A program made the translations under genes and the position numbers. Below the pieces are notes generated by a model. That model saw nothing but the letters and a program-made list of their open reading frames with translations, did no database searches and had not been told where the DNA came from. Shown here one piece after another: positions 20,074-40,239 of a stretch of 40,239 nt of DNA; position 1 is the stretch's first letter, and each line of letters begins with the position of its first letter. The stretch spans positions 1-40,239 of the forward strand of contig CANQJG010000003.1 of assembly GCA_947624185.1 (NCBI GenBank), read 5' to 3'. The DNA comes from an uncultured Clostridia bacterium. GTDB lineage: Bacteria > Bacillota > Clostridia > TANB77 > CAG-508.

Positions 20074-20203
20074 TTAATTATGATTTGATCTTTAATTCTT
20101 TGCATTTGTTTAATTAAGATCTACTCTTTAATTCTTGCATTTGTTAATTATGATCTACTCTTTAATTCTTTTCGTTTGTTTAATTATGATTTACTTTGTA
20201 ATT
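20074..20203. repeat. ~35-bp tandem repeat (about 3.6 units) in the argS leader
   Basis: Units of ttaattatgatctactctttaattcttt(g)catttgt starting at 20074, 20110, 20144 and 20180. Confidence 0.85.
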
Positions 20204-20256
20204 GTTTGTATTCTTTTAATCATACTTTGCTTTATAATCATATAATTATTTAAAAC

Positions 20257-29802: not shown

Positions 29803-31365
29803 TTATATTTCTTGATCATCTAAATCTATTTTTTTATCATTTGTTGTTTTCTCTGTATTTTGAATATTTCTTGCCTTTTTATATTCATTATAAATTCTTT
29901 TCCATTTTAATGGATCATATAATTTATTTCTTGTTTGTACTATCCTTAATGCTTTGTTTATTGTATCTAATGCAATTTTGTCTTCTTTCAACTCTTTTTT
30001 ATGTAATTTTAAATATCCTTCTGAGTGTTTATATATTTTTGCTTTAAAAGCCGCTTCTGATTGAACTAATACTTGTAATGTCTCATCTTCTCCTTCTATT
30101 AATTCTTTTATTTCTTCTATTTTATTTAACATATCTTTTGAATCTGATTTTTCTATTAATTTTCTTGCTTTCCCTATTGCATCTAATTCTTTATTTTTTT
30201 CTGTAAAGATTTCTTCAAAGTCATCTTCTGTTTCATCTAATTTTATTGATTCTACTCTTACAATTGGTTCTTTTTTTCTGTCTTTATTTCTTTCTTCTTC
30301 TGCGATACTCCTTAAACTATTCATTGCTTTTACATTGTCAGGTTCTATCTTTAATACTTTTTCTAATAATTCTTTTTCTCTGTCTTTATTTCTTTCTTCT
30401 TTTGCGATTCTTATTAAACTATATATTGTTATTACATTATTAGGCTCTAATTTTAATATTTTTTCTAATAATTCCTTTTCTCGTTTTTTATTTTGCTCTT
30501 CTCTTGCAATTCTTATTAAGCTACTCATTGCTATTGTATTATTAGGCTCTATTTCTAATATTCTTTCTAGTAATTTCTTTTCTTGATCTTTGTTTTGCTC
30601 TCTTCTTGCAATTTTTATTAATCTACCCATTGCTTTTACATTATTAGGCTTTAATTCTAATAATTTCTCCAGTAATTCCTTTTCTCGATTTTTATTTTTT
30701 TCTTCTCTTGCAATTCTTATTAAGCTGCTCATTGCTATTATATTATTAGGCTCTATTTCTAATATTTTTTCTGATAATTCTTTTTCTCGATTTCTATTTT
30801 TTTCTTTCCTTGCTATAATTATTAAATTAATCATCGTTCTTGCATTATCAGGATCTACATTTAATATTTTTTCTAGTAATTCTTTTTCTCGATTTCTATT
30901 TTTCTCTTCTCTTGCAATTTTTGTTAACGTATACATTGCTATTACATTATTAGGCTCTATTTCTAATATTTTTTCTGATAATTCTTTTTCTCGATTCCTA
31001 TTTTTCTCTTTTATTGCTATACCTATTAAACTAATCATTACTTGTACATTGTCATTTTCTACTTTTAATATTTTTTCCAGTAATTCTTTTTCTTCTTCTT
31101 GATTACCTTTTTGTTTTGCTATTAGCATTTCTAAAGATAATATAACAATTCTATTTGATTTTGGGCTTAATTTATTAATTTCTATTCTTGCTTCTTCAAT
31201 GTTTCCTTCTTTTATTAGTCTTTTAGCTTTTTTTCTTATTTCTATTTCTTTTTTCCATTTGTTCAAAGTTGAAATAGATATTTGAGTATCTTTACTTATC
31301 TGTTCTAAGTCTTCATTTGCTTTTATTCTTTCTTCTATCTCATTTTTTACTTTATAAGAATACAT
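29803..31365 (-). CDS. N-terminal HTH plus eight 34-aa TPR-like repeats, function unknown
   Basis: LEQISKDTQISISTLNKWKK HTH-like; repeats NxxREKELLEKILxxEPNNxxAMxxLIxIAREEx; start at ATG 31365 (GGGGGA RBS) or up to 31386. Confidence 0.8.
   Translation of the reverse strand: MYSYKVKNEIEERIKANEDLEQISKDTQISISTLNKWKKEIEIRKKAKRLIKEGNIEEARIEINKLSPKSNRIVILSLEMLIAKQKGNQEEEKELLEKILKVENDNVQVMISLIGIAIKEKNRNREKELSEKILEIEPNNVIAMYTLTKIAREEKNRNREKELLEKILNVDPDNARTMINLIIIARKEKNRNREKELSEKILEIEPNNIIAMSSLIRIAREEKNKNREKELLEKLLELKPNNVKAMGRLIKIARREQNKDQEKKLLERILEIEPNNTIAMSSLIRIAREEQNKKREKELLEKILKLEPNNVITIYSLIRIAKEERNKDREKELLEKVLKIEPDNVKAMNSLRSIAEEERNKDRKKEPIVRVESIKLDETEDDFEEIFTEKNKELDAIGKARKLIEKSDSKDMLNKIEEIKELIEGEDETLQVLVQSEAAFKAKIYKHSEGYLKLHKKELKEDKIALDTINKALRIVQTRNKLYDPLKWKRIYNEYKKARNIQNTEKTTNDKKIDLDDQEI
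30289..31104 (-). repeat. 8 x 102-bp coding tandem repeat
   Basis: Eight ungapped 34-codon units visible at DNA and protein level. Confidence 0.9.
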
Positions 31366-36770: not shown

Positions 36771-38222
36771 TTATTTCATATAAAGTACCACACGAAAACC
36801 TGTAATCATACTATAAGCACTCTTTAGAGTATCATCACCTTCGGCATGAACTACAGGGCACTCATTTCCTGCATATTTAAAGCTTCCACCACGAAGAATA
36901 ACATACATTGTACTATCTTTAATATTGTGAGCAGTCGTCCATTCCCATACATTTCCTGCCATATCATATATATTATATGCTTTGAAATCATTACATACAC
37001 CTGTTGCCAGTTCTATTCTGGTTTTGTACGTTTTGCTACTTTTTTCATAACTTTGATCAGCCTTTGCTGTTACTGAACTTTTATTATATGTTGAAGCATA
37101 ATCCCATGTGTCTTTATCTTCATCACTATTTAAACCATGTTTTGCCCAAAAGCCATTTATTTTTGTATAATTTGTTGTCGTATTATTATAATAGTTTCCC
37201 CAATTTGTTGAATTTGATATTGTTTTTCCAATACTAGCAAATAGATTACAAATCACATTCCATGCTTGACTGTCTACTAAATAACTTCCTACACTATCTT
37301 TATTCTTATCTTTATACATATTTTCTGCTACTATTTTAGCGCTTGCTTGGCTTATATAATTCCATACTGGTTCACCTTTTTTACTTACTGGTGATAAATT
37401 TTTTATTGCATCTAATCCAGCTTTATTTGTCTGGCCCCTATTAGAATGATCATATGTTAAATCGCCTTTAACATAAAAACCTGCATTACTTGGAATTCCT
37501 GCTTCATACCTTGCTATATAAAATCCACCATATTTTCTTATACTTTCTTTTGCTTTACTTGTTTGATTTTTCTCCCAACTCGAAGTTATTGCACTTATTC
37601 CCGAATCACCTGAAGCACCACTATTGTATTCGTTATTTACATTTGTAATATCAGCACTTGTATAATCATCACTCCACGCTAGTCCATTGCCTGCAGTTGA
37701 TGTTCCATTTGTTTCATACGGAGTATTATGACTCCAGCCTTTATCCATTACATCATTTTTTGCATCTTCATATTCTTGTTCTGTACATGGTATCCATACA
37801 AATTGATTTCCGCCACCACTATTGTTTAAGTCATCTCCTGAAACATCTGATATTACAAATCCTGTTTTTCTATTTCCACCTGCATAATAGAATCCCTTTG
37901 GTATTGGTATTATATATCCTTTTCCATCTGACGTTGGTGTTACTATACTTGTATCCCAATTTTTATTACTTGGTATCTCTGTTTCTTCTCCTGCACCTTT
38001 CAATCTTGCTTCCATTTCTTCTTCTAAATCTTGTAAACCATTTTCTTCTTCATTTTGGGCACCTTCATATTTTTCTGTTGCTTGTTTTGTTTTATCAATT
38101 AATCCATTATCTCCCAAAGTTAGATTCAAGGTGACTCCTGCTAAAATTAACATTATTATGATTGTAATTACAAGTGACAGTATAGTTATACCTTGCTCTT
38201 TTTGATTTTTCTTCTGTTTCAT
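36771..38222 (-). CDS. Type IV pilin-like N-terminus fused to an FGE-sulfatase/C-type-lectin-fold domain (paralogue 2)
   Basis: QKEQG|ITILSLVITIIIMLILAGVTL class III signal; GNQFVWIP, GGFYIARYEAG, NIYDMAGNVWEWT, RGGS...GFRVVLY. Confidence 0.82.
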   Translation of the reverse strand: MKQKKNQKEQGITILSLVITIIIMLILAGVTLNLTLGDNGLIDKTKQATEKYEGAQNEEENGLQDLEEEMEARLKGAGEETEIPSNKNWDTSIVTPTSDGKGYIIPIPKGFYYAGGNRKTGFVISDVSGDDLNNSGGGNQFVWIPCTEQEYEDAKNDVMDKGWSHNTPYETNGTSTAGNGLAWSDDYTSADITNVNNEYNSGASGDSGISAITSSWEKNQTSKAKESIRKYGGFYIARYEAGIPSNAGFYVKGDLTYDHSNRGQTNKAGLDAIKNLSPVSKKGEPVWNYISQASAKIVAENMYKDKNKDSVGSYLVDSQAWNVICNLFASIGKTISNSTNWGNYYNNTTTNYTKINGFWAKHGLNSDEDKDTWDYASTYNKSSVTAKADQSYEKSSKTYKTRIELATGVCNDFKAYNIYDMAGNVWEWTTAHNIKDSTMYVILRGGSFKYAGNECPVVHAEGDDTLKSAYSMITGFRVVLYMK

Positions 38223-38231
38223 TTTTACCTC

Positions 38232-39725
38232 CTATTTTACATAAAGAACTACTCTAAAGCCCATAATAGCATGGCAAACAGTATTTAAATCATCATCGCC
38301 TTCTGCATGTACTATTGGATATCCGTCTCCGGCATATTTAAAACTACCACCACGTGGAACAACATACATTTTATCTCCATTGATGTTATGTCCTGTCGTC
38401 CATTCCCATACATTTCCTGCCATATCATATATATTATACACTCTAAAATCATCACACAAACCTGTTCCCAATTCTATTCTGTATTTATATGTTGTACTAG
38501 ACTTAGTATAAGTACTATCAGGTTTAACATTAATATTACCTTTTTCATACTTTGATGCATAAGTGTCCCATTTATCAGCATCTGTCAATCCATATTTTGC
38601 CCATAAACCATTTATTTTTGAATAATCTGTTGATGTATTATTGTAGTAGTTTCCAAATTTTGTAGAATTTAATATTGTTCTTTGCGTATCTTTTGTTCCT
38701 AATACATCCTTGAATAACTGACAAACACGATTCCATGCCTGACTATCTATTAAATAACTTCCTACACTATCGTTATTCTTGTCTTTATACATATTTTCTG
38801 CTACCGTTTTTGCATTTGATTGGTTTATGTAGTTCCATACTTGTACACCTTTTTTGCTTACTGGTGATAAACCATTTATTGCATTCAATCCTGCAGTATT
38901 TACTTGTCCCCTATTTGTATGATTATATGTTAAATCGCTATTTATATAGAAGCTTGCATTACTTGGTACTCCTGCTTCATATCTTGCTATATAAAATCCA
39001 CCATATTTCCCTGTACTTTCTATTGCTTTACTAGTTTGATTTTTTTCCCATTTTGAAGTTATCGCACTTATTGTAGCTTCTGGTACACTTTTAGCAACAT
39101 ATACATCATTTACCTTTTTGATATCAGCATCTGTATAATCATCACTCCAAGCTAAGCCCTTTCCTGTAGTTGATGTTCCATTTGTTTCATATTGAGTGTT
39201 ATGACTCCAATTTTCATCCATTACATCATCTTTTGCTTCTCTATATTCACTTGCAGTACATGGTATCCATACAAATTGATTTCCACCAGCACTATTTTTT
39301 AAATCATCTCCTTCTTGATCAGAAATTACAAATCCTGTACTTTTATTTCCACCTGCATAATAAAATCCTTTGGGCACTGGTATTACATTTCCTTTTCCGT
39401 CTGATATTGGTGTTACTTTGCTCATATCCCAATTTGATTGGTTTGGTGCTTCTGTTCCTGCATCTTCAAATTGATCATATAAATCATCTTGAAAATCTTG
39501 TATTCTGTCTTCTTCTTTTTCTTGAGTTTCTTCATATTTTTCTGTTGATTGACTTGCCTTGTCAATTAATCCATTGTCTCTAAGTGCTGCATTTAATACA
39601 ACTCCTGATAAAATTAGCATTACCAATATAGTTACAGATAGTGCAATTATAGTTACACCCTGTTCATTCAAAATTTTCATATTATTTTTGTATGAATTTT
39701 TTGTTTGTATTTTATTTTGATTCAT
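38232..39725 (-). CDS. Type IV pilin-like N-terminus fused to an FGE-sulfatase/C-type-lectin-fold domain (paralogue 1)
   Basis: NEQG|VTIIALSVTILVMLILSGVVL; same motifs; collinear with its neighbour over the full length. Confidence 0.82.
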   Translation of the reverse strand: MNQNKIQTKNSYKNNMKILNEQGVTIIALSVTILVMLILSGVVLNAALRDNGLIDKASQSTEKYEETQEKEEDRIQDFQDDLYDQFEDAGTEAPNQSNWDMSKVTPISDGKGNVIPVPKGFYYAGGNKSTGFVISDQEGDDLKNSAGGNQFVWIPCTASEYREAKDDVMDENWSHNTQYETNGTSTTGKGLAWSDDYTDADIKKVNDVYVAKSVPEATISAITSKWEKNQTSKAIESTGKYGGFYIARYEAGVPSNASFYINSDLTYNHTNRGQVNTAGLNAINGLSPVSKKGVQVWNYINQSNAKTVAENMYKDKNNDSVGSYLIDSQAWNRVCQLFKDVLGTKDTQRTILNSTKFGNYYNNTSTDYSKINGLWAKYGLTDADKWDTYASKYEKGNINVKPDSTYTKSSTTYKYRIELGTGLCDDFRVYNIYDMAGNVWEWTTGHNINGDKMYVVPRGGSFKYAGDGYPIVHAEGDDDLNTVCHAIMGFRVVLYVK

Positions 39726-40000
39726 TTGTTTTTCCTTTCTATTCTATTTTTTTCTCATTTTTACTCTAGTAATTTTCTATAACTCATAAAATATTATCGA
39801 TGTGTCATGAAATATCAATACTTCTTCAATATTTTTAATTTACCCTATTTTGCTTTTTTAATTCACATTTTCTATATTTTGTATTCGGTTTGTTCCGACT
39901 ATTTTTATTTTACCATTACATTTTTTCACTGTCAATTATTTTTACAACTTTTGCAATTTATAAAAATAATCGTAAAAGTAAAGCTACAAAAGACAACAAA

Positions 40001-40038
40001 AAGCCACGTATTTTAGATTAAACTAAAACACATAGCTT
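40001..40038 (-). terminator. Intrinsic terminator for a transcript entering from the right edge
   Basis: Minus strand aagctatgtgttttag-6 nt-ctaaaatacgtggctt (16 pairs including G-U) followed by ttt. Confidence 0.8.
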
Positions 40039-40081
40039 CTATTTCTATGTTTCCACCCGTTTCCTATTATATTTAAAACAT

Positions 40082-40214
40082 TCAAACTGTTGATCAATGA
40101 TGCCATTATATCTACTAAAGTAATTTTTTCTAGACCGATTAACAAATATATGGTAGAATATGGTGTGTGTGTGTGTGTCAGACTGTTGAACAATGAGCCT
40201 ATTATGTCTACTAA
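40082..40214. repeat. Two 37-bp direct repeats (31/37 identical), 96-bp period, dif/Xer-site-like
   Basis: tcaaactgttgatcaatgatgccattatatctactaa (40082-40118) and tcagactgttgaacaatgagcctattatgtctactaa (40178-40214). Confidence 0.85.
40163..40178. repeat. (GT)8 microsatellite
   Basis: Read directly. Confidence 0.95.
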
Positions 40215-40219
40215 TACGA

Positions 40220-40239
40220 CTCTCTCTCTCTCTCTCTCT
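40220..40239. repeat. (CT)10+ microsatellite truncated by the window end
   Basis: Read directly. Confidence 0.95.

Follow-up and report, generated by a model that had tools for sequence, protein, structure and literature searches.

In Streptococcus gallolyticus, the Pil1 locus is described as having a repeat tract within a short leader ORF; when the frame shifts, the lengthened peptide runs into a terminator hairpin that precedes the pilus genes (PMC3894217). IStrons, described as first found in Clostridia, join a group I intron to enzymes of the IS200/IS605 or IS607 type (PMC13565253). The eukaryotic retrotransposons Mino (AC), Kibi (TC), and Waldo are reported to insert into AC or TC/AG repeats (PMC3812793), and insertion sequences (ISs) with outward promoters have been described, in which a terminal promoter can drive a neighboring gene (PMC3281130). 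Outward promoters, Pil1 attenuation, IStrons, and eukaryotic microsatellite-targeting elements are already known, as is the IS1182 family. In the literature searched, which was mainly open-access, we found no bacterial IS described as inserting into a phase-variation tract while bringing a substitute for it, although a prior description is possible.

The window analyzed here (the whole stretch of 40,239 nt) is all of contig C3 in an assembly of 87 contigs (1.04 Mb, 29% G+C, 77% complete), and the features near its end are listed in Table 1. The locus resembles Pil1 in its repeat tract within a short leader ORF and in the predicted frame-dependent run into a hairpin. Whereas Pil1 has GCAGA repeats at one locus, however, the repeats here are dinucleotides at ~20 loci per genome, associated with prepilin-like genes, and a transposon appears to enter and duplicate the switch. 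The module of an IStron likely spares the host gene that it enters, and the present element is similar in being an IS fused to a module likely to spare the interrupted host gene; the module is, however, a promoter–leader–repeat switch on IS1182 and not a group I intron, and no credible Rfam match was found in 38000–40239. The repeat targets are the same as those of Mino, Kibi, and Waldo, but the element is a bacterial DDE element and its target a likely regulatory tract. Compared with the ends of outward-promoter ISs, the end here adds an RBS, a start codon, a tract prone to slippage, and frames that stay open into the leader of the host.

Table 1. Features of the window in order from the contig end inward
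Feature	Position	Strand	Remarks
(AG)10+ tract of the IS end, part of the leader ORF that the element brings	40220..40239	-	Truncated where the contig stops
Spacer of 26 nt in the IS end (earlier "centre" plus "XerD arm")	40194..40219	-	Off-frame stop at 40211–40213
Terminal inverted repeat (15 bp) at the pilin-facing end of the IS1182-family element	40179..40193	.	Inverted partner on C40 and C79; both ends of L206
(AC)8, downstream part of the tract entered by the element	40163..40178	-	
Possible third, more decayed terminal repeat, 11/15	40131..40145	-	Shuffle P 0.007; weak, post hoc
Older decayed IS end: terminal repeat (40083–40097, 13/15) plus spacer	40083..40123	-	No tract after it
Intrinsic-terminator-like hairpin of the attenuator	39999..40040	-	Long leader frame stops inside (40023–40025); second frame stops at 40045–40047
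Second sigma-70-like promoter, 11/12, extended -10	39907..39935	-	Between the terminator and the pilin-like gene
497-aa prepilin-like surface protein	38232..39725	-	C-terminal FGE-sulfatase-like (lectin-type) domain
483-aa paralogous prepilin-like protein	36771..38222	-	

Repeat-bearing leaders of prepilin-like genes

The genome contains 27 dinucleotide tracts of at least six units, nearly all of which are set in one design: a promoter, an RBS, a leader start of ten codons, an (AC)n or (AG)n tract, and a conserved hairpin with a T run, usually followed by a prepilin-like gene. The hairpin was present in 22 of 29 tract rows, and exactly one reading frame reached it in 22 of 22, including three loci interrupted by an element; the remaining seven rows were two contig ends, two direct fusions to a pilin-like ORF, two IS far ends, and one unrelated tract. 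Seventeen leaders were uninterrupted, and in these both remaining frames stopped 3–15 nt past the tract. Four of the 16 leaders with a known start were in the long (ON) frame, and tract lengths ranged from 9 to 18 units among paralogues. A tract was located ≤900 nt upstream of 18 of the 27 strict matches to the prepilin motif, which misses the gene at 38232–39725. Among 121 genomes sampled from this uncultured gut order, 43 also had (AC)n/(AG)n tracts. Twenty loci were sampled from 18 genomes; in 19 of them, two frames stopped early and the third was longer (prepilin motif in nine, within the fetched DNA only). This arrangement suggests that the tract family likely represents leader-peptide attenuators before pilin-like genes, which would be on/off phase variable. 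The available part of a paper on pilins of TANB77 (PMC11680825), the order with which this genome is tentatively linked, makes no mention of repeats, phase variation, or transposases, and the pilins it describes are shorter.

At the window locus, the second, strong promoter-like site lies behind the terminator and may allow transcription to skip the switch, unlike the dependence on read-through of a Pil1-type attenuator. A search of this genome (77% complete) for a PilC-type gene (PF00482) gave no match, and the label "pilin" therefore rests on the N-terminal motif, together with an Atlas lead for the 497-aa protein, whose look-alike cluster has N_methyl in 21% of its members. Both pilin-like proteins (36771–39725) carry the FGE-sulfatase-like domain at the C-terminus, a fold that is a common target of diversity-generating retroelements.

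Several other observations concern these genes and their surroundings. Three prepilin-like paralogues (on C20, C60, and C73) have a +1 break in a common position immediately beyond the hydrophobic N-terminal helix, which may be either a recurring mutation or a second control point; on C20 and C60, the (AG)n tract is directly fused to the pilin-like ORF. A GC-rich palindromic repeat is often located between the leader terminator and the pilin-like gene (C35, C73, and C76). In genomes of family f3, the same tract–leader–terminator design precedes genes lacking the prepilin motif (L254–L261). Elsewhere in the window, a 36-bp tandem array of four copies lies at 20074–20220, between argS and a glycosyltransferase gene, and a TPR-coding array of 102-bp units at 30268–31093.

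The repeated contig end and its IS1182-family element

The original prediction interpreted the end of the window as paired dif/Xer-like sites at the edge of a locus combining site-specific recombination with slipped-strand variation. Its description of the letters was accurate: two 37-nt direct copies at 40082–40118 and 40178–40214, 96 bp apart, are identical at 31 of 37 positions, with three of the six mismatches inside the 8-nt "centre", and shuffling the last 240 nt 500 times gave no comparable repeat better than 26/37. The tracts (GT)8 (40163–40178) and (CT)10 (40220–40239, the contig end) were also as described, and no recombinase was found between 1 and 40239. The repeat and tract region is not an assembly artefact, a possibility that had been raised for the terminal ~100 bp: C35 and C79 contain exact matches to the newer copy, and contigs from sequencing runs match the region. 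One of these spans 39806–40194 with 0 differences and is not independent support because it possibly comes from the source sample, and another, from a different study, spans 39761–40148 with four differences. The site is multi-copy and breaks the assembly, in agreement with the expectation that a contig ending in the tract marks a repeated site.

It is extremely improbable that the two copies are dif/Xer-like sites that shuffle pilin cassettes. Their arm–centre–arm appearance is compatible with this, as is the presence of three tyrosine recombinases in the genome, two of them XerC/D-like; however, these genes are located on C43, C6, and C2, none beside the repeats, and the motif, which as a dif site would be expected once per chromosome, has four copies in the genome, on three contigs other than those of the recombinases. 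The motif was found in 0 of 60 relatives at two mismatches. The reading was rejected because conservation among the homologous ends is limited to the outer 15 bp: the inner "XerD arm" sequence occurs in no other genome's homologous end, the boundary of the element coincides with the (AC)n tract and not with the 8-bp centre, and the inverted 15-mer partner adjoins a DDE transposase. A separate dif-like candidate on C25 was dropped after it was not found in five relatives, and no true dif site was identified for comparison. What remains of the proposed locus is its slipped-strand part, with Xer recombination replaced by a mobile-element junction whose tracts likely control the pilin-like genes.

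The feature is almost certainly the end of an element of the IS1182 family (NF033551), a family that the complete homologous element resembles in having a single DDE transposase, 15-bp terminal inverted repeats, and a length of ~1.9 kb. C40 and C79 each end in the outer 15 bp of the newer copy, inverted and immediately preceded by an (AC)n tract; on the opposite strand, these contig ends encode 13 residues that match the C-terminus of a transposase. These residues are identical at 9/13 positions to those of L206, an element in a relative, and at up to 10/13 in the 110 closest proteins, as against ≤6/13 in the other 130. L206 is a complete element of 1,890 bp with the window's 15-bp repeat at both ends, (AC)8 before it and (AC)6 after it. 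Its 489-aa transposase (NF033551, 321.8 bits; cut-off, 270) points away from the pilin-like gene, its pilin-facing end has its own start codon and (AG)10, and its far end aligns with the end of C40. Because both flanks are (AC)n, a target-site duplication is indistinguishable from the tract. Only one other complete element was found, L187 (transposase, 310 bits against the same cut-off of 270), which has a degenerate far repeat and a carried tract of the same type as its target; it was reached via a DUF772 search of 301 genomes, and its transposase then led to L206.

Residues D143, D302, and E434, which we take to be the conserved acidic triad of the IS1182 transposase, were invariant in 21 aligned transposases. 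The L206 clade contains 110 listed proteins at 54–100% identity, mostly on element-sized contigs, after which identity drops to 43%. A second clade (L187 and L205), 41% identical to the L206 clade, has the same design at AG-type sites; in the phylogenetic tree, the AC and AG clades each had 100/100 support, and their sister relation was unsupported. The nearest plasmid record was the IS1182 transposase of Clostridium pasteurianum BC1 (41%).

The element body was not found in its own assembly by a search of genome G000 for the transposase family, and its attachment to the window end therefore rests on contig overlaps and homology. The last 77-mer is common to C40 and C79, and the first 77-mer to C3 and C79. 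From these overlaps and the homology, the simplest path would be C40–IS–C79–IS–C3, the multi-copy body having been lost in binning; the last ~400 bp of C79 are 90% identical to the end of C40, so strain mixing is possible. Terminal ends are multi-copy in G000 and in G007, the latter with four far and two pilin-facing ends. Neither PF05598 nor PF13751 had a match in G000, G007, G128, or G209, nor did PF05598 in G222 or PF13751 in G431.

These contig joins bear on whether the body has already been lost at the window locus, leaving a solo scar as a domesticated two-tract switch and a contig break caused by the tract alone. Solo ends with ordinary host genes upstream are present in four genomes (G099, G519, G033, and G209), the older copy in the window would be such a remnant, and the contig does stop inside the tract. 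We nevertheless regard this as very unlikely, given that C40 and C79 both extend into the end of the transposase, that C79 and C3 both begin with an identical 77-mer, which places C79 in both pairs, and that the summed depth at 40156–40211, which is not a copy number, was ~24–36 in one run, against 3–4 on the flank.

Two observations were made at other contig ends. C79:1-3469 (L009) holds a pilin-like gene, a 444-aa protein, the N-terminal motif of which appears ATPase-like by eye, and a duplicated promoter–leader between two IS ends in a composite-transposon-like arrangement. The contig ends of C8, C46, C47, C64, and C81 have a repeated sequence in common, which presumably resembles the ends of group II introns.

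Insertion sites and distribution

In a junction census of 24 selected ends, all were located at the same AC register and in a fixed orientation. An AG tract lay 26–29 nt inside the element in 13 of the 16 pilin-facing ends, as against none of the eight far ends; one of the three exceptions was cut by a contig end, one was decayed, and one was a miniature element. With the miniature left out, the prepilin motif occurred ≤900 nt from 13 of 15 pilin-facing ends. The miniature is 99 bp long, retains both ends, and sits within the tract of another genome with one frame open. When the search was led by the transposase and blind to the target, tract junctions were found at the three closest of 12 places and at none of the other nine. 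Other IS1182 elements of the same order have similar 15-bp repeats and are sited at hairpins or other motifs, whereas the L206 clade is found in (AC)n in one orientation, with a leader and (AG)n aboard. Survival bias could mimic such targeting, since insertions elsewhere could have been purged.

A search with the 15-mer repeat alone in 401 genomes yielded 15 matches, of which 12 were at tracts, one at a decayed tract, one in a sister miniature element, and one in a gene. A tract-biased search of 401 family genomes yielded 40 matches, 15 of them with GT context in 10 genomes; of the 25 matches without it, the four inspected were coding sequence. Together with G128, these 10 genomes bring the ends to 11 genomes in eight genera and two families. 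No element of the L206 type was found in 200 class-level genomes, where the single other match was an ordinary hairpin-flanking IS1182-type end, and pattern scans of metagenomes gave no match. A viral scan with tract context also gave no match; a repeat-only viral scan gave 120 loci, which we attribute to chance because none had a facing partner.

The putative switch carried by the element end

The pilin-facing ends have an RBS, a start codon, and a leader start homologous to those of the host. In the window, the contig ends inside (AG)n, so the start codon and promoter of the element-borne leader would lie past 40239; the assignment of this leader is based on homologous ends on C35 and in G007 and G401, which show an RBS and a start codon upstream. 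A promoter upstream of the carried leader scored 11/12 in L187 and, by eye, 9/12 in L206; those of L206 and L205 were below the 10/12 threshold. In each of the 13 tract-bearing ends, one frame met a stop 35 nt short of the outer end, and the other two continued without a stop across the terminal repeat. For the eight distinct spacers, two open frames arose in 9–25% of shuffles (per-spacer P 0.09–0.25), and because the spacers are homologous, the pattern does not represent 13 independent events and the P values do not multiply. This genome has three interrupted loci, and at each of them the hairpin is reached from (AG)n in exactly one frame.

We consider it probable that these features together constitute a mechanism in which an IS1182 end in the (AC)n tract of a leader attenuator rebuilds the switch that its own entry breaks. 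The transposase would pick (AC)n tracts, and the element, on entering the (AC)n of a leader, would break the switch, which its own start codon, (AG)n, and predicted promoter would then rebuild. The interrupted gene would likely stay switchable because the element brings its own AG-repeat copy of the switch. After insertion, the gene would be governed by the length of two tracts: slippage of either would shift the leader into the one frame running into the terminator, and a leader that reaches the terminator would allow the pilin-like gene to be transcribed. Recombination between the host and element leader starts would delete the transposase and leave a two-tract scar, and the older repeat copy (13/15) may be such a scar. 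Loss of the body in this way would also fit the solo ends of G099, G519, G033, and G209. At L251 (G209:C5), a decayed solo IS end lies in frame with a pilin-like ORF and both tracts are degraded; here, the switch is apparently fixed ON and the terminal repeat would code for part of an N-terminal extension.

The leader might instead be passively captured host DNA in a genuine IS1182 end, placed by homology or survival bias and acting as an outward promoter or having no role. Host AG-type leaders match one element spacer at 20–21 of 28 nt, the host and element leader starts of L187 are nearly identical, and outward promoters are described as common in IS ends (PMC3281130). Passive capture is nevertheless unlikely: all 24 of 24 junctions lie at the same tract register in a fixed orientation, the frame layout is kept across spacers that are alike at only 12–19 of 28 nt, and the same design recurs with the second, 41%-identical transposase clade.

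Returning to the rebuilding of the switch by the element, the trace at 40131–40145 hints at nested insertions; its score of 11/15 compares with 7–9/15 reached by 20 control leaders against the terminal repeat. A broader scenario is possible but rather doubtful. The two IS1182 clades may be specialised on the hypermutable tracts of contingency switches and trade targets, the AC-inserting clade delivering (AG)n and the AG-inserting clade being able to deliver (AC)n (L205); loci would gather nested ends because of this trade (up to three in the window), host AG-type switches would be domesticated IS ends, and the phase-variation switches of many pilin-like genes would be built, lengthened, and reset by transposition. 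The evidence on a decayed-end origin of the host AG-type leaders is mixed, with a spacer match at 20–21 of 28 positions and a terminal-repeat match at only 5–7 of 15.

The analysis exposes ~20 predicted repeat-controlled attenuators per genome, and both the presumed (AC)n target choice of the DDE enzyme and the logic of the switch are directly testable in a laboratory strain. If the proposed mechanism is true, this bacterial IS inserts selectively into a microsatellite and makes up for the disruption by bringing a working copy of the regulatory switch. Together with splicing out and plain outward promoters, this would make three ways in which an element can spare its host.
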